This document shows, one piece after another, positions 5,869 through 12,640 of a stretch of DNA of 64,000 bases. The translations under genes and the position numbers were made by a program. Under the pieces are notes generated by a model that was not told the DNA's origin, made no database searches, and worked only from the letters and a program-made list of their open reading frames with translations. The first letter of the stretch is position 1. Every line of letters begins with the position of its first letter. The stretch lies in the IMG/VR virus record IMGVR_UViG_3300030441_000198; one strand, written 5' to 3'. This stretch comes from a virus.

Positions 5869-5897
5869 TTGACTTCTGCAATGGTATCCTGTATAAT
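5869..5897 (+). promoter_or_regulatory. consensus sigma70 promoter carrying the conserved GTATCCTGTATAATATAGCTAT motif
   Basis: TTGACT 5869-5874, 17-nt spacer, TATAAT 5892-5897; motif 5884-5905 recurs seven times in the phage. Confidence 0.55.
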
Positions 5898-5940: not shown

Positions 5941-6360
5941 ATGGACAACAATATTGACCCAAAGGTCGGAGAGGTTTGGTTGGTTGATCTATCCAACGCG
6001 ACAGGTCATCAGCAGCGCGGTATTCGACCGTTCGTTGTGACGAGCAACAATAAGCGCAACTTCTTTAGCCCCACGATCAAAGGGAATCCATTGTCTTCCA
6101 GAATATACAAGCACTCTCCGGTTCATGTCCTACTTTCAAAGGAAGACTGTGATTTCTTAGAGGTTGACAGTATCGTTCTTTGTGAAGAGACTGACACACT
6201 TAACAAAGGACAGTTCATCAAAAAACTTGGTGTCTTGTCGGAGCGTCAGATGAATATGATCGCAATGGCAAGATGCAAGGATGAACCGTTTTTGCTCGCA
6301 GCATTCCTGAGCGGCGTACAACATACCATGGAATTTCAGAATTTTGCCGCATTTGCTTGA
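5941..6360 (+). CDS. mazF: MazF/PemK/EndoA-family endoribonuclease toxin
   Basis: GEVWLVDLSNATGHQQRGIRPFVV...SPTI aligns with the EndoA/MazF signature ([24 protein letters not shown]...SPT); RBS AGAGGAG. Confidence 0.7.
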   Translation: MDNNIDPKVGEVWLVDLSNATGHQQRGIRPFVVTSNNKRNFFSPTIKGNPLSSRIYKHSPVHVLLSKEDCDFLEVDSIVLCEETDTLNKGQFIKKLGVLSERQMNMIAMARCKDEPFLLAAFLSGVQHTMEFQNFAAFA

Positions 6361-6413
6361 TTTTTCATAATGGTTAATGGTACACTACATATAATAAGAA
6401 GGAGTGTGCCACT

Positions 6414-7340
6414 ATGCTTACTGAAGAAAAGATCAAAGCTTTTGCTGAAAAGTATTCTGATAGAAGCGGTGAGTTTGTTGTATCGACACTTAGCCATGTT
6501 ATGGATTACGAGGCCGAGTGTGGGTATGAGCTATTCGACTTCATAAAGAGTGATTTCGTAAAGATGTTTTCCCAGTATAACTGGGTAAACTCAAGCCGCT
6601 CATTCAAAAATGTGAAGTCGATAATCACAGGCTACATCAAAAGCGAAAACGAAACAAGTATGTATGATCTAGCTGACTTTTCAGAGAGCGATGTAAGCGC
6701 AGACAATATGTATGCGGATAAATACTTCGCATCAGTTGATGAGTTTGTTGACTTCTTAAATAAGTACGAAGAGCCATATCAGATTCGCATGAACGTGATT
6801 GCTGCACTGTACTGGATTGGCCTTACTTCTGAAGAAGTTTCTAACCTGACGATTAACGATGTCGATTTTGAATCTTGTACAGTTCTTGACAAGACCGATG
6901 TTGACGCAAAGTTGATAGATATTATTAAGCAGTGTTATGAAATGAAACAGTATGACGCTCCCAATAAGGGAGGGTATAGAGCATTCTATGTCATGAATGG
7001 TGATTACATCATTCGTAAAACCGATGATAGTATCGGTGCAGACAGTGATCCAAAGATGTCTACGAACACAATTCACACCTATTTTACGCGGTTGAATGAT
7101 ATCCTTGAAAGAAGATATCATTCGAAGATTTTAGACCGAAGACATCTTGTCAGAAATGGTGAGTATGTGAAGGTCTACAACTACTGCCAGAACCACCCAG
7201 AATATAATTTTACGAAACTTGGTTTTGATAGGGGTGGGGATTCTCTTGCCAACATTATTGGTAGAGAATGTTGTAAGACGGCCTATCTTAGTTTCCGACA
7301 GGGATACAAAGGTTGGGTCGAATATTTCCATAAAAATTGA
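6414..7340 (+). CDS. hypothetical protein (weak integrase-like segment, no catalytic motifs)
   Basis: 308-aa ORF with RBS AAGGAG; ALYWIGLTSEEVSNLTINDVDF resembles the start of a tyrosine-recombinase catalytic domain but R..H..R..Y residues are not evident. Confidence 0.4.
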   Translation: MLTEEKIKAFAEKYSDRSGEFVVSTLSHVMDYEAECGYELFDFIKSDFVKMFSQYNWVNSSRSFKNVKSIITGYIKSENETSMYDLADFSESDVSADNMYADKYFASVDEFVDFLNKYEEPYQIRMNVIAALYWIGLTSEEVSNLTINDVDFESCTVLDKTDVDAKLIDIIKQCYEMKQYDAPNKGGYRAFYVMNGDYIIRKTDDSIGADSDPKMSTNTIHTYFTRLNDILERRYHSKILDRRHLVRNGEYVKVYNYCQNHPEYNFTKLGFDRGGDSLANIIGRECCKTAYLSFRQGYKGWVEYFHKN

Positions 7341-7345
7341 AAACA

Positions 7346-7368
7346 GGGGGCTTCTGCCCCTTGATTTT
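7346..7368 (+). terminator. rho-independent terminator
   Basis: GGGGC-TTCT-GCCCC hairpin followed by TTGATTTT. Confidence 0.55.
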
Positions 7369-7376
7369 AACGTGTT

Positions 7377-7396
7377 AGCTATATAACACAGGATAC
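7377..7396 (+). promoter_or_regulatory. conserved motif AGCTATATAACACAGGATAC (promoter/operator) upstream of the Pnkp-like gene
   Basis: One of seven copies of the -10 box plus GTATCCTG/CAGGATAC box motif. Confidence 0.45.
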
Positions 7397-7411
7397 TTAT
7401 TAGAAAGGGAA

Positions 7412-9628
7412 ATGCAGATGAGAACACTTTTACTGTTCCGTGGAGCACCCGGTTGCGGGAAGTCCACCTATATTAAAGAGCATAATCTGGAACAGTACGT
7501 ATTGAGTGCTGATACACTTCGCCTTATGTGCCAGAGCGCGCAGGAAACACCTGCTGGGCAGATGGAGATTTCTCCGCAGAATGATGATGTTGTATGGAAG
7601 ATGCTTTTTAAACTGATTGAGGTGCGCATGAGTCACGGGGAATTTACTGTGATTGACGCAACGAATTCTAAGACGGTCGAAATGAATTGTTATAAGAATC
7701 TTGCAAAACAGTATCGTTATCGTATGTATGTTATTGACATGACGGATATTCCTATCGAGGAATGCAAACGAAGAAACGCTCAGAGAGAATGGCTGAAGCG
7801 AGTCCCTGAAGCGGCCATTGATAAGATGTACGCTCGGTTTGCTACTCAAAAAGTTCCTTCTGGCGTGACAGTTCTTCCTTCTACTACGGATGTGCTGTCT
7901 GATTTGAACTACAGTCCGAATGACTTCAACCAGTGGAAAAAGATCCATATCATCGGTGATATTCATGGCTGCTATACTTGTTTGAGTGAATACCTTGGTG
8001 AGATGAAGGACGACGAACTTTATATCTTCGTTGGTGATTATCTCGATCGTGGCATCGAAAACGTTGAGGTATTCAAGTTCTTGTGTGATATTGTAAATAA
8101 CAACCGCAAGAATGTGATTCTTTTGGAAGGAAATCACGAGCGTTGGCTGAACAAATGGGGGCATGATGAACCGGTTCAGAGTGAAGAGTTTGCAAACTAC
8201 ACTCGTCCGCAACTCTTTAAAGCCGGTATTGACAAGAACACTGCTCGTAAGATCTATTCCAGAGTTGGCCAATGTGCTTACTTTGAGTATGATGGGAAGC
8301 GGTATTTCGTGAGCCACGGTGGTTTGAGTTATCTGCCTTATTTTCTTCCTTTTGTATCTGCTGATCAAATGATTAAAGGCGTAGGTCGCTATCCTGATAT
8401 GCTAACCGTGGCTGAGTCTTGGGAAAAATCGATGCCGGATAGCTACATTCAGATCTTCGGTCATCGAAATGTGCAGGATGTTCCTATTGATATGGGGCAT
8501 CGGTGCTACAACCTCGAAGGAAAAATCGAGTTTGGTGGATATCTCCGTTGCGTGGAACTTGAACACGGTCAGTCAATCAAATGTGTAGAAACAAAGAACG
8601 ATGTGTTCCGAAAAGAGGAGCCAAAGACTGAAACTGCCGTTGAAATGAAAACTGAGTTCGATAACGCAGAACTTGTCAGTAAGATGCGTCAAAGCAAATA
8701 TGTGTTTGAGAAGCGATTCGGAGATATTTCTTCTTTCAACTTCTCTCGTGAAGCATTTTATAAGAAGCACTGGGATGAGGTTTCTACCAAAGCAAGGGGG
8801 TTGTTCATTAACACAAAGACGAATAAGATTGTAGCTCGAAGCTATGATAAGTTCTTTGCGGTCGATGAGCGGAATGAAACGAGAATTGGAAACCTACAGA
8901 ACACTTTGAAGTTCCCGGTGACTGCATATCTGAAGGAAAACGGATTTCTTGGCATTGTCTCATATGATGCAGAACAGGATGGTCTGTTCATTGCAAGTAA
9001 ATCCACTCCTGAAGGGCCTTTTGCAGATATGTTCCGAAAGATTCTCATGGATACGACTTCTGATGAAGACCGTAAGAATCTGAAGGAAGTTGCAAAAGAG
9101 AATGGTTCCATCATTTTTGAGGTGATTGATCCTATAAATGATGCTCATATCATCGAATACAAGAAACCGCACATTGTTTTGCTGGATATTGTTGCGAATG
9201 ATATGAACTTCAGTGTGATGGATTACGATGATCTGAAGCGTGTTGCTGAAAAGTGTCATTTGCAGATTAAGGAGAGGGTTAAGATTTTTGAGAGCTGGAG
9301 TGAATTCTATCCTTGGTATGAGGAAGTCATGAACGAGAACTATCTGCATCATGGCTTTGAACACGTTGAAGGCTTTGTTTTGCGAGACAGCAACAATTTC
9401 ATGTTTAAGATGAAGCTTCCTTATTATAAGCACTGGAAGTTCTTGCGTGGTGTCATGCAGAGCGTTCAGAAACGTGGCTATTATGAAAATACCGCAAAGT
9501 TGTTTACTGCTGAGGATAACCTGTTTTATGGTTGGATGCGTGAACAACGAGAGAAAGGCCAGGAATCTTTCTGCAAAAAGGGTATTATTCAGTTACGGAA
9601 TGAATTCTATGAGAATCGGCACGAATAA
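7412..9628 (+). CDS. Pnkp-like trifunctional RNA repair enzyme (P-loop polynucleotide kinase + metallophosphoesterase + adenylyltransferase/ligase domain)
   Basis: N-terminal Walker A GAPGCGKST; central GDIHG / GDYLDRG / GNHE metallophosphatase motifs; C-terminal KENG candidate lysine-adenylylation motif I. Domain order matches bacterial Pnkp. Confidence 0.65.
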   Translation: MQMRTLLLFRGAPGCGKSTYIKEHNLEQYVLSADTLRLMCQSAQETPAGQMEISPQNDDVVWKMLFKLIEVRMSHGEFTVIDATNSKTVEMNCYKNLAKQYRYRMYVIDMTDIPIEECKRRNAQREWLKRVPEAAIDKMYARFATQKVPSGVTVLPSTTDVLSDLNYSPNDFNQWKKIHIIGDIHGCYTCLSEYLGEMKDDELYIFVGDYLDRGIENVEVFKFLCDIVNNNRKNVILLEGNHERWLNKWGHDEPVQSEEFANYTRPQLFKAGIDKNTARKIYSRVGQCAYFEYDGKRYFVSHGGLSYLPYFLPFVSADQMIKGVGRYPDMLTVAESWEKSMPDSYIQIFGHRNVQDVPIDMGHRCYNLEGKIEFGGYLRCVELEHGQSIKCVETKNDVFRKEEPKTETAVEMKTEFDNAELVSKMRQSKYVFEKRFGDISSFNFSREAFYKKHWDEVSTKARGLFINTKTNKIVARSYDKFFAVDERNETRIGNLQNTLKFPVTAYLKENGFLGIVSYDAEQDGLFIASKSTPEGPFADMFRKILMDTTSDEDRKNLKEVAKENGSIIFEVIDPINDAHIIEYKKPHIVLLDIVANDMNFSVMDYDDLKRVAEKCHLQIKERVKIFESWSEFYPWYEEVMNENYLHHGFEHVEGFVLRDSNNFMFKMKLPYYKHWKFLRGVMQSVQKRGYYENTAKLFTAEDNLFYGWMREQREKGQESFCKKGIIQLRNEFYENRHE

Positions 9629-9694
9629 CTAAGATATTTTCTTCCTCCGAAAATGCCCTGCGCGGGGCTGACAGCCGGGAAAGACCGGCGATAT

Positions 9695-9773
9695 GGCCCT
9701 ATGGCGGAATTAGGCATACGCAACAAGCTCAAACCTTGTAAAATTCTCAGTTCAAATCTGAGTAGGGCTACCA
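9695..9773 (+). tRNA. tRNA, anticodon CAA (UUG-reading) with class-I length, oversized D-loop and encoded CCA; isotype uncertain
   Basis: Acceptor GGCCCTA/TAGGGCT, anticodon stem ACAAG/CTTGT with loop CTCAAAC, T-arm CTCAG-TTCAAAT-CTGAG, 3' ACCA. Confidence 0.5.
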
Positions 9774-9852
9774 ACCCATTTGCAGATGGGTAAGTGCTAG
9801 AATATTGGCAAATCGGAAAGACGGTTGACTGCTGGACAGACAGCTTTGATAT

Positions 9853-9935
9853 GCTACCGTGGTGGAATGGCAGACACCGGAGACTTAAAATCTCCTGTCG
9901 GCAACGACGTGCCCGTTCAAGTCGGGTCGGTAGCA
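9853..9935 (+). tRNA. tRNA-Leu (anticodon TAA), class II with long variable arm
   Basis: Acceptor GCTACCG/CGGTAGC, anticodon stem-loop GGAGA-CTTAAAA-TCTCC, variable arm GTCGGCAACGAC, T-arm GCCCG-TTCAAGT-CGGGT. Confidence 0.65.
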
Positions 9936-9942
9936 CTAATAT

Positions 9943-10018
9943 CCGGGTGTAGCTCAGTTGGAAGAGCGCGTGCTTTGGGAGCATGAGGCCGCAGGATCAT
10001 GACCTGTCACTCGGACCA
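9943..10018 (+). tRNA. tRNA-Pro (anticodon TGG), encoded CCA, atypical T-loop (ATCATGA)
   Basis: Acceptor CCGGGTG/CACTCGG, D-arm GCTC-AGTTGGAA-GAGC, anticodon stem CGTGC/GCATG with loop TTTGGGA. Confidence 0.6.
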
Positions 10019-10048
10019 GCCCGAAAGGGCATGTAGAATTTTTCATTC

Positions 10049-10100
10049 ACATTATTCCCAGCTCTCTGGAAACAGAGCAGTGTGGCATAGCAAGCTGGGT
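10049..10100 (+). ncRNA. conserved structured hairpin element preceding tRNA-Gln (copy 1)
   Basis: ATTATTCCCAGCTC ... AAGCTGGGT outer stem enclosing CTCTG-GAAA-CAGAG (GNRA loop); a second copy with compensatory changes lies at 10316-10368. Confidence 0.4.
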
Positions 10101-10105
10101 AGATT

Positions 10106-10178
10106 ACGAGGATTAGCCAAGCGGATAAGGCAGTGGAATTTGACTCCACGACCGCAGGTTCGATTCCTGCACCCTCGA
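10106..10178 (+). tRNA. tRNA-Gln (anticodon TTG)
   Basis: Anticodon arm GTGGA-ATTTGAC-TCCAC, T-arm GCAGG-TTCGATT-CCTGC, acceptor CGAGGAT/ACCCTCG with one mismatch. Confidence 0.55.
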
Positions 10179-10185
10179 TTTATAT

Positions 10186-10270
10186 GCGGGTATGGTGTAA
10201 CTGGCAGCCACGCGGATTTTAGGTGTCCGTGCCGAAAGGCGTGAGGGATCGTGCCCCTCTACCCGTACCA
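10186..10270 (+). tRNA. tRNA-Leu (anticodon TAG), class II, encoded CCA
   Basis: Acceptor GCGGGTA/TACCCGT, anticodon arm CGGAT-TTTAGGT-GTCCG, variable arm GCC-GAAA-GGC, T-arm GAGGG-ATCGTGC-CCCTC, 3' ACCA. Confidence 0.6.
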
Positions 10271-10315
10271 CGGTCATAGAATGGTTGCGTACCGTTTGTT
10301 GATCTCCTTTGGCCA

Positions 10316-10368
10316 CTATTATTCCCAGCTCGCTCGTAAGAGTGCAGTAGTGCTTTGTAAGCTGGGTG
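10316..10368 (+). ncRNA. conserved structured hairpin element preceding the tRNA-like gene (copy 2)
   Basis: Same outer stem CCCAGCT/AGCTGGG; inner hairpin CTC-GTAA-GAG covaries with copy 1. Confidence 0.4.
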
Positions 10369-10373
10369 ATTGT

Positions 10374-10445
10374 GCAGTTATTGTGTAGTTGGTAAGCACG
10401 CTTGCTGATGAAGTAAGAGGATGAGTTCAAAACTCATTGACTGCA
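10374..10445 (+). tRNA. tRNA-like sequence, non-canonical anticodon loop (TGATGAA, G at position 33); possible pseudo-tRNA
   Basis: Good acceptor (GCAGTTA/TGACTGC), D-arm (GTGT-AGTTGGTAA-GCAC) and T-arm (ATGAG-TTCAAAA-CTCAT); anticodon loop lacks U33 and variable loop is 3 nt. Confidence 0.3.
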
Positions 10446-10648
10446 AAATATGAAATCAGTTGTTCTAGCTCGTTCGTGGATTGGCCGTACATTGGCGACC
10501 GGAAAGACGTCATACCGGTAAAGGACGTCAAGCCAAACAAGAAGAGAAATAAGGTGTAAGCCGACTAGCTATCGGATAAATACTCTTCGATTCGCCAGAA
10601 AACTAGAATGTAAAACGAATGGTTGGCTGTTTCTGATTTCATTTATAT

Positions 10649-10724
10649 GCGACTGTAGTTCAATTGGCAGAGCGTCAGATTTCCAATCTGAATGTTGCGG
10701 GATCGTGCCCCGTCAGTCGCTCCA
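10649..10724 (+). tRNA. tRNA-Gly (anticodon TCC), encoded CCA
   Basis: Acceptor GCGACTG/CAGTCGC, D-arm GTTC-AATTGGCA-GAGC, anticodon arm TCAGA-TTTCCAA-TCTGA, T-arm GCGGG-ATCGTGC-CCCGT, 3' TCCA. Confidence 0.65.
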
Positions 10725-10855
10725 CACGCAGCCACTTACGCTGCACCGGTTGCTCAGAGCCGAAAGAAACCTATATGTTACGACATGGTTGCCAAGAGTG
10801 ATCATATTGGAACGCGACGTAGCTTGGATAGTGAGAATTAAATTCTGAGGTATAC

Positions 10856-10924
10856 TGCTGGATAGCTTAATGGTAAAAGCGCTCGGAAACGCCGAGAGAT
10901 AAGGTTCGATTCCTTCACTGGCAT
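10856..10924 (+). tRNA. tRNA-like element with canonical D- and T-arms but a 5-nt anticodon loop; probable degenerate or regulatory tRNA-like RNA
   Basis: TAGCTTAATGGTAAAAGC D-arm and AAGG-TTCGATT-CCTT T-arm; central CTCGG-AAACG-CCGAG hairpin instead of a 7-nt anticodon loop; imperfect acceptor. Confidence 0.25.
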
Positions 10925-10951
10925 CACGTCGATGAAAGTCGGCGTTTGCAT

Positions 10952-11028
10952 GGGATAGTAGCTCAGTTGGTCAGAGCTGGCGGCTCATAACCGCTTGGTC
11001 GCGAGTTCAAATCTTGCCTGTCCCACCA
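10952..11028 (+). tRNA. tRNA-Met (anticodon CAT; Met/fMet/Ile2 not distinguished), encoded CCA
   Basis: Acceptor GGGATAG/CTGTCCC, D-arm GCTC-AGTTGGTCA-GAGC, anticodon arm GGCGG-CTCATAA-CCGCT, T-arm GCGAG-TTCAAAT-CTTGC, 3' ACCA. Confidence 0.65.
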
Positions 11029-11132
11029 GCCCGATAGGGCATACATAAAATCTGCTAGAACTTTTGTTTTATAAGCGAATGAATAATATGACGTTAATAC
11101 GTCTATTATTTTTCGCTAATTTTTAAAGTTTT

Positions 11133-11167: not shown

Positions 11168-12640
11168 AAACTGAAGCATTACGGAGATATCACACAACTT
11201 CATGGATGGCAGATTGAACCGGTTTCCTGTATCACAGGAGGCAGTCCATGCCAAGATTTGAGTCAGGCCGGTAAACGTGAAGGTTTGGCTGGTGAACGCT
11301 CTGGATTGTTCCTTGAAATGATTCGTGTGATTACAGAAATGAGGGAGGCCACCAATGGGGAATATCCAAAATTCGCAATCTGGGAAAATGTCAGAGGAGC
11401 TTTTAGCTCAAGCAAAGGTGAAGACTTCAGATGTGTGTTGGAAAGATTTGCACGCATTGTCGAGCCAGACGTTTCAATTCCTCGACCTTCAGGAAAGAAC
11501 GGAAAGTGGGCAAAATCTGGAGCGATTTCCGGTAATGGATGGTCTCTTGCATGGAGATTGTTCGACGCTAAATACTGGGGAGTCGCCCAGCGCCGCCAGA
11601 GAATCGCGCTTGTCATGGATTTTGGAGGACAACGTGCCTCAGAAATTCTATTTGAGCGCACGAGCATGTCAGGGGATTCTTGTGAGAGCATCCCGGCGTG
11701 GAAAACCTTTGCCCGAACTCCTGAAGCAAGCGTTGCTGGATATGATCGAATGGTGGAATCCAGGAACTCTGTCACAGGTGGTGCAGAAAGTGAAGGAACA
11801 AGAAGGTCTGGAAGAGAAGGAATTGGACGAGTATTGGAGTCAAACCATCGAGAGACTTCGACTCGATGCACAGAACCTGCAGCCTACACTCTAAAAATCC
11901 GTTCTGGATGTGAAGGTGGCGGTAAAGGCGCTCTGGTTCAAACTGAATTGAGCGCAACGATTTCTACGTTGCAAGACCAGACGCTAATTTGCTTGGTAGA
12001 AAATCCCTCCTTACATAATTTAAAACAAAAGATTTCGCCGGTGGTATTTGAGAGTCACAGTCAGGACGCTCGATACACTCAGCAGGGTGATACAAGTCCG
12101 ACTTGTACTGCTCAGTGGGGAACGGGCGGTAATAATATGCCGCTGGTTGTTGAAAAGAAAGCCTTTGCGATGCAACGCATTGGTGAATACAAGGAAAGTG
12201 AACACGCCAGCACGATGAAATCTCGTGATTATAAGGACGCTACTGATCTGATTGCAGAGAAGGAAACGAAGAATCTACGATGGATTGTTCGCCGCTTGAC
12301 TCCTTTGGAGGATGAACGGTTACAGGGTTTTCATGACGGATGGACTGATATCGGTGATTGGATCGATGAGAATGGGAAGAAGCACAAGACTTCTGACGCA
12401 GCTCGTTACAAAGCACTCGGTAATTCAATCGCTTTGCCTCAGTGGTATTGGATTTTTCAGAAAATGAAGCCGTATATCGGTGAAAATCCTACGCTTGGCA
12501 GTCTTTTCGATGGAATTGGTGGCTTTCCGCTTGTCTTTGAAAGTACGTATGGTGATGGTACTGCTATCTGGGGGTCTGAAATTGATAGCTTTTGCGTTGC
12601 AGTAACCAAGAAGCGTTTTCCAGAAAAGCAAAGAGGATAA
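11168..12640 (+). CDS. DNA (cytosine-5)-methyltransferase, circularly permuted motif order (IV-X then I-II) with an internal segment in another frame; possible pseudogene
   Basis: Motif IV GGSPCQ at 11240-11254, ENV (FAIWENV), QRRQR, C-terminal-type RLTPLEDERLQGF and GNSIALP, then motif I LFDGIGGF and motif II SEID at 12500-12600 before the stop. The target-recognition segment (QKFYLSARACQGILVRASRRGKPLPELLKQAL) sits in the +1 frame at about 11616-11893. Confidence 0.55.
   Translation, partial: KLKHYGDITQLHGWQIEPVSCITGGSPCQDLSQAGKREGLAGERSGLFLEMIRVITEMREATNGEYPKFAIWENVRGAFSSSKGEDFRCVLERFARIVEPDVSIPRPSGKNGKWAKSGAISGNGWSLAWRLFDAKYWGVAQRRQRIALVMDFGGQRASEILFERTSMSGDSCESIPAWKTFARTPEASVAGYDRMVESRNSVTGGAESEGTRRSGREGIGRVLESNHRETSTRCTEPAAYTLKIRSGCEGGGKGALVQTELSATISTLQDQTLICLVENPSLHNLKQKISPVVFESHSQDARYTQQGDTSPTCTAQWGTGGNNMPLVVEKKAFAMQRIGEYKESEHASTMKSRDYKDATDLIAEKETKNLRWIVRRLTPLEDERLQGFHDGWTDIGDWIDENGKKHKTSDAARYKALGNSIALPQWYWIFQKMKPYIGENPTLGSLFDGIGGFPLVFESTYGDGTAIWGSEIDSFCVAVTKKRFPEKQRG

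Follow-up and report, generated by a model that had tools for sequence, protein, structure and literature searches.

Does a MazF toxin gene that lies next to an RNA repair gene and a tRNA array on a phage genome form one functional system with them? The question arose from a stretch of viral DNA of 64,000 nucleotides (IMG/VR record IMGVR_UViG_3300030441_000198; hereafter, the window), in which an initial annotation had seen an RNA damage-and-repair island. The island was to consist of a MazF-like toxin, a Pnkp-like kinase/phosphatase/ligase that would mend the breaks made by MazF or by host nucleases, and nine tRNA or tRNA-like genes.

Organization of the locus and its tRNA genes

We assign the phage to the temperate, SPbeta-like prophages, with a Gemmiger-like gut bacterium as host: the adjacent IMPDH is 86%–87% identical to chromosomal Gemmiger IMPDH, and SPbeta-type genes (YorF-like, AAA_24, and DnaB-like) are present. 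The mazF gene, an mrpR-like gene, the repair gene, and the tRNAs all lie on the plus strand (Table 1) and thus form the co-directional block that had been described. Promoter-like sites such as the one upstream of mazF are no more numerous in the region than in shuffled controls. The repair gene, the tRNA array, and a DNA methylase gene would be cargo in a variable slot, flanked on one side by a lysogeny-control cassette (mazF with its mrpR-like neighbor) and on the other by the replication module (YorF-like, AAA_24, DnaB-like helicase, and primase). Among close relatives, the C5 DNA methylase is present, absent, or replaced.

Table 1. Features of the locus, in window coordinates
Feature	Coordinates	Strand	Basis or remark
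Promoter-like site upstream of mazF	5869..5897	+	TTGACT-17-TATAAT; 11/12 consensus matches only
mazF, PemK/MazF endoribonuclease, 139 aa	5941..6360	+	PF02452, phrog_1936
MrpR/YopR-like gene, 308 aa, candidate master repressor	6414..7340	+	phrog_5830, family profile
Terminator-like hairpin and T-rich tail, between mrpR-like gene and repair gene	7345..7361	+	Pattern match only
Repair enzyme, whole gene, 738 aa	7412..9628	+	Three Pfam domains, phrog_8238
Kinase domain, residues 1 to ~155 (P-loop 5'-OH polynucleotide kinase)	7412..7876	+
Phosphatase domain, residues ~170–400 (binuclear metallophosphoesterase; 2',3'-cyclic phosphodiesterase/phosphomonoesterase)	7919..8611	+
Ligase domain, residues ~418–738 (ATP-dependent, Trl1/Rnl6 type, including C-terminal helical module)	8663..9628	+
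Nine tRNA or tRNA-like genes	9695..11028	+	ARAGORN and Rfam
tRNA-like CAA ("Leu-CAA")	9695..9773	+	Without long variable arm
tRNA Leu-UAA	9853..9936	+
tRNA Pro-UGG	9943..10018	+
tRNA Gln-UUG	10107..10178	+
tRNA Leu-UAG	10186..10270	+
tRNA "His", doubtful	10373..10446	+
tRNA Gly-UCC	10649..10724	+
Degenerate tRNA-like gene	10856..10924	+	Rfam; 5-nt anticodon loop
tRNA Met/CAU	10952..11028	+
Terminator-like hairpin past last tRNA	11090..11103	+	Pattern match only
C5 cytosine DNA methyltransferase, cargo of variable slot	11258..12640	+	PF00145 (E = 2e-24), phrog_116

ARAGORN called eight tRNAs and Rfam added a ninth, which agrees with the nine genes counted earlier. "tRNA or tRNA-like" is the right wording, because the ninth gene has an anticodon loop of only 5 nt and "Leu-CAA" lacks a long variable arm. 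The core tRNA set after the repair gene was also found in the 14 close relatives scanned. Its composition is accounted for by codon compensation, since the anticodons match codons that GC-rich host genes avoid. As shares of their synonymous families, CTA, TTA, CCA, CAA, GGA, and ATA reach 0.08, 0.09, 0.19, 0.26, 0.23, and 0.07 in phage genes; in the adjacent GC-rich IMPDH and NAPRTase genes, the only two from which host codon usage was judged, the share is 0.02 for GGA and 0 for the other five. The main task of the tRNAs would thus be to decode A-ending and rare codons, which are in use in the AT-richer phage and avoided by its GC-rich host. Some relatives carry over-long tRNA-Met and tRNA-Gln genes, for which introns were considered and rejected: the extra 15–17 nt lie in the variable region, not in the anticodon loop, and are therefore long variable arms.

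The repair enzyme and its distribution

The 738-aa protein matches three Pfam domains: AAA_33 kinase (residues 6–144), Metallophos (177–355), and RNA_lig_T4_1 (PF09511, 460–672, E = 4e-40). The profile phrog_8238 ("RNA ligase") covers its full length (E = 4e-227), and sequence matches in the PDB comprise Trl1-LIG, T4 Rnl1, the CthPnkp kinase, and lambda/PP2A phosphatases. The N terminus bears the P-loop 5'-OH polynucleotide kinase of bacterial Pnkp, and the central domain bears the GDxHG, GDxxDRG, GNHE, H, and GH motifs of a binuclear metallophosphoesterase. The C-terminal part is a classic ligase domain of the nucleotidyltransferase type, that is, an Rnl1-like adenylyltransferase domain with its lysine nucleophile and motifs III, IV, and V, to which the helical module distinctive of Trl1 is attached. 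The lysine of the KENG motif (residues 508–511), which had been singled out before, is K508; it is unchanged across 20 homologues together with N510 and G511, as are E570, EGFV 653–656, K666, and K668 of the ligase. Indeed, the catalytic residues of all three domains are invariant in these homologues at ~50% identity. Judged from these motifs, the protein is a self-contained predicted RNA heal-and-seal enzyme with a Pnkp-type healing half and a Trl1/Rnl6-type sealing half, and its intact active sites would provide the activities that the initial annotation had ascribed to it, namely those that heal and seal breaks that leave a 2',3'-cyclic phosphate and a 5'-OH.

The label "Pnkp-like" suits the kinase and the phosphatase; it does not extend to the ligase. 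The NCBIfam model bacter_Pnkp (TIGR04075) matches the first two domains only (profile positions 9–323 of 851); the score is 77.8 bits where the cutoff is 750, so that by full-length score the protein has no C-terminal adenylyltransferase of the Rnl4 type. The best matches of the ligase domain are Trl1 and T4 Rnl1. At the 2'-phosphate site, YRQWRE of Trl1 aligns with YKHWKF; R334 and R337, for which a role in binding the 2'-phosphate has been proposed, have their counterparts in K673, which is variable, and K676, which is invariant.

These assignments suggest a complete reaction path. The P-loop kinase would phosphorylate the 5'-OH end, while the lambda-phosphatase-type metalloenzyme would open and then remove the 2',3'-cyclic or 3'/2' phosphate. 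The ligase, adenylylated on K508, would pass AMP to the 5'-phosphate and join the 5' end to the 3'-OH. A Trl1/Rnl6-type sealing half would need no Hen1, and no Hen1 is expected, because the ligase is not of the Hen1-dependent bacterial Pnkp type. Consistently, Pfam and PHROG searches found none beside the repair gene, as had been remarked earlier: the neighbors are the MrpR-like gene, the tRNAs, and the C5 DNA methylase. Across 83 clustered loci, no conserved partner gene of the repair gene was found. An exact-sequence look-up gave no record of the 738-aa protein, and PADLOC linked none of the four proteins tested to a defence system. We found no biochemical study of the fusion family; the RNA repair survey of Burroughs and Aravind (2016) may list the architecture.

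We surveyed repair-gene loci in GTDB genomes (n = 80) and diverse viral loci in IMG/VR (n = 80), using home-built MazF and MrpR-like HMMs and flanks of 8–10 kb, so that remoter copies are missed; the loci are not phylogenetically independent. MazF occurs within 8–10 kb in 5 of the 80 GTDB loci (absent from 75) and in 23 of the 80 IMG/VR loci (absent from 57), and at least three tRNAs occur in 5 and 15 of them, respectively. In total, 132 of 160 diverse loci have the repair gene without MazF at this distance. Gut Clostridia and their big phages have many members of the repair-enzyme family. In Lachnospiraceae, at least 17 loci are cellular in context: upstream of the repair gene they have genes for an AraC regulator and an aldo-keto reductase. 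The chromosomal homologues, present in many Lachnospiraceae, are full-length and ~50% identical, and two-component systems are also found nearby. Of 599 pattern-matched stretches in IMG/VR, 551 code for a relative, and many of the 80 loci kept are on phage contigs of 110–215 kb. The neighbors of the phage copies include tRNAs, DNA methylases, RlaP, Thg1, and NAD-salvage genes, a typical counter-defence cargo. A viral scan with P0019 gave no result, and one with P0005 returned only the window's own phage group.

MazF and its partner gene

The first gene of the block encodes a MazF-like protein, as had been proposed: it matches PemK_toxin (PF02452, E = 2.9e-19) and phrog_1936 ("MazF-like") and aligns to the solved MazF proteins of S. 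aureus and B. subtilis. R29 (in GIRP) is kept and Ser52 replaces Thr, so that the PemK fold comes with Arg and Ser at the positions known from B. subtilis MazF to be catalytic. The protein has a conserved C-terminal extension of ~30 aa and is 95%–100% identical in 80 close relatives. Its subfamily comprises 44 clusters; those on contigs of ~125–130 kb are phage-like, and many are on contigs too short to classify. No MazE-type antitoxin was found upstream of mazF: searches of Pfam, NCBIfam, and PADLOC with a 108-aa upstream ORF gave no match, and the ORFs in this position are non-homologous between clades. When phage transcripts were scanned for 5-mers, no strand-specific depletion was detected. 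Avoidance of MazF sites by the transcripts was rejected, because the only depleted words, CCWGG and GGWCC, are DNA palindromes depleted on both strands; TACAT was enriched.

The 308-aa gene between mazF and the repair gene, passed over in the initial annotation, matters most for interpreting MazF. Its product matches phrog_5830 ("integrase," E = 1e-10). It has no significant Pfam match itself, and the assignment to MrpR is transitive, by way of a protein (L081) that is 31% identical to it and bears Pfam MrpR_N_CB. The core-binding domain PF22822 is matched by 7 of 12 members of its family (best E = 4e-14). The family profile also matches XerA/XerC/XerH (E = 3.5e-4) at the first catalytic-Arg motif; the Arg is replaced, and the window protein reads G136-L-T there. 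Recombinases were matched by the family profile only, a single-sequence PDB search yielding nothing meaningful, and sequence searching with the MrpR-like protein did not bring up PDB 8A0A. These profile matches point to a tyrosine-recombinase fold with a degenerate active site and make the protein a candidate master repressor and a probable homologue of MrpR/YopR.

The two genes form a conserved cassette in which the MrpR-like gene is the partner of MazF: among 28 loci that have both, it comes immediately after mazF in 27, with stop-to-stop distances of 980–1070 nt. The mazF and repair genes are at most 10 kb apart in at least six divergent phage lineages, and in four clades, those of the window, P0012, P0019, and P0010, nothing but the mrpR-like gene stands between them; in these, the repair genes are only 51%–54% and the MazF proteins 65%–70% identical. 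The position of mazF relative to the repair gene varies (about −1, −3.5, or +2.7 kb); in one locus (L281) the cassette is downstream, and in nine close relatives a 2.6-kb insertion separates cassette and repair gene. Two loci (L326 and L327) have the order PemK, MrpR-like, repair gene, YorF, AAA_24, YorH, DnaB. A third (L328), the only one of nine loci compared to match the replication genes of the window (48%–66% identity), reads PemK, MrpR-like, Band_7, two ORFs, YorF; the repair gene is absent from its slot. In two prophages (L084 and L264), mazF is frameshifted and the repair gene is intact. The linkage of mazF to the repair gene is greater than that of a random gene pair, and shared SPbeta-like synteny can explain it.

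Roles of the cargo and the cassette

The proposal that MazF, the repair enzyme, and the tRNAs are one system does not agree with the pairing of MazF with the MrpR-like gene, the distribution of the repair gene, the order in L328, the mazF pseudogenes, the hairpin and insertion, or the codon compensation, and the one-island reading is weakly supported. We favor, with a probability of about 0.6, a joint reading in which a variable slot carries the repair enzyme, the tRNAs, and the methylase as counter-defence cargo, and MazF belongs with the MrpR-like protein. The enzyme would re-join tRNAs or other RNAs cut by RNase-type defences or toxins of the host, so that translation goes on during infection. 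MazF would work together with the MrpR-like repressor, to control lysis versus lysogeny or to exclude other phages, and not with the repair enzyme. That the enzyme works, like T4 Pnkp and Rnl1, against nucleases that cut tRNA or other RNA was part of the initial annotation and is both the standard reading and the likeliest one (PMC7824862, PMC8008677). RNA repair and tRNA provisioning are a recognized counter-defence theme of phages (PMC7824862), and a tRNA ligase of gut phages, encoded near methylases, has been interpreted likewise (PMC8008677).

An unlikely alternative is that the enzyme reverses MazF damage for chosen RNAs or at chosen times, e.g., at the switch from lysogeny to the lytic cycle, with the tRNA genes making good the damage or being protected from it. 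The biochemistry of MazF and Pnkp is established, and the chemistry of MazF products fits the three activities of the enzyme. The direct adjacency of the three genes in four clades, the linkage within 8–10 kb in further clades, and the failure to find a classical antitoxin upstream of mazF are consistent with this, and there is a precedent in RtcB, which Temmel et al. in 2017 reportedly found to reverse MazF cleavage. Moreover, host MazF decides between lysis and lysogeny in the SPbeta-like phage phi3T (PMC10769878). However, most diverse repair-gene loci are without a MazF nearby and some are in non-phage chromosomal contexts, intact repair genes stand beside mazF pseudogenes, L328 has the cassette without the repair gene, and distance and order vary. 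A terminator-like hairpin and a strain-specific insertion come between cassette and repair gene, and no 5-mer has the depletion that would point to MazF-site avoidance.

A further version, which we consider a long shot, combines these elements: SPbeta-like gut prophages would have taken in the MazF arm of the arbitrium/MazEF circuit, and the repair enzyme would reset the pool of MazF-cut RNA at the lytic switch. Phage MazF, co-transcribed with the MrpR-like gene, may then be a lysogeny-promoting or exclusion effector, and may be controlled by the MrpR-like protein or by its own C-terminal tail. If this were true, the "antidote" of the toxin would be RNA repair and not a binding antitoxin. It is similarly improbable that phages took over from Clostridia an enzyme of housekeeping or stress, which mends RNA breaks of any origin and has no specific part in phage-host conflict. 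The full-length homologues in ordinary Lachnospiraceae chromosomal neighborhoods and the lack of a conserved partner gene argue for such general quality control; the abundance of relatives in IMG/VR, many on large phage contigs, and the company that the phage copies keep argue against it. Finally, although the ligase is of the Trl1 type, several clades (the window group, L307, L143/L149, and L156) have tRNAs right beside the repair gene, and some relatives have over-long tRNA genes, we regard it as very improbable that the enzyme matures the phage's own tRNA transcripts, e.g., by joining halves as Trl1 does in fungi, given that the extra nucleotides are variable arms, that the window tRNA calls are of normal length (72–85 nt) with no insertion in the anticodon loop, and that most loci have no tRNA near the repair gene.

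Comparison with known systems

Many bacterial defences cut tRNA, and a widespread phage repair enzyme would therefore counter them in a general way, which makes it worth testing. A homologue that is 43% identical (WIT28247.1) is encoded by SPbetaL8, a cultivable Bacillus phage, and offers an experimental system. The enzyme would be single-chain and Hen1-independent, combining a bacterial Pnkp healing module with a Trl1-type ligase. Its kinase and metallophosphatase resemble the healing half of Clostridium thermocellum Pnkp; in contrast to that protein, its ligase is not of the Rnl4 type, and, unlike in the Pnkp/Hen1 system, no Hen1 gene adjoins it. The ligase domain and C-terminal helical module resemble fungal Trl1 (Rnl6 clade). 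Trl1, however, is arranged LIG-KIN-CPD, whereas here kinase and metallophosphatase precede the ligase; and Trl1 heals by means of a 2H cyclic phosphodiesterase, after whose action a 2'-phosphate remains, whereas the 738-aa protein has no 2H domain and places ahead of its ligase a CthPnkp-type metallophosphatase, which in CthPnkp takes the phosphate off altogether. To our knowledge, Trl1-type ligase has been studied so far only as the fungal tRNA-splicing ligase, which is absent from mammals and treated as an antifungal target. T4 Pnkp and Rnl1 are two proteins acting against the anticodon nuclease PrrC, in contrast to the single polypeptide found here. The T4 Pnkp phosphatase is of the DxDxT HAD type and the present one a calcineurin/lambda-type metalloenzyme, and the C-terminal module is Trl1-like and not the tRNA-specificity domain of T4 Rnl1 (248 versus 314 residues aligned).

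The cassette invites comparison with SPbeta, in which mrpR shares one operon with a protein that releases host MazF (PMC10516654, PMC10769878). The SPbeta/phi3T circuit consists of MrpR (YopR) together with YopM/phi3T_93, AimX, and YosL acting on host MazEF. Neither arbitrium genes nor MazE-like inhibitors were identified in the window phage, which, like SPbeta, has an MrpR-like gene and SPbeta-type genes. Unlike in SPbeta and phi3T, MazF is here phage-encoded, directly upstream of the mrpR-like gene. The cassette thereby ties a phage-borne toxin to a candidate master repressor, and the phages that have it are related to a temperate model phage whose lysogeny is steered by host MazF.

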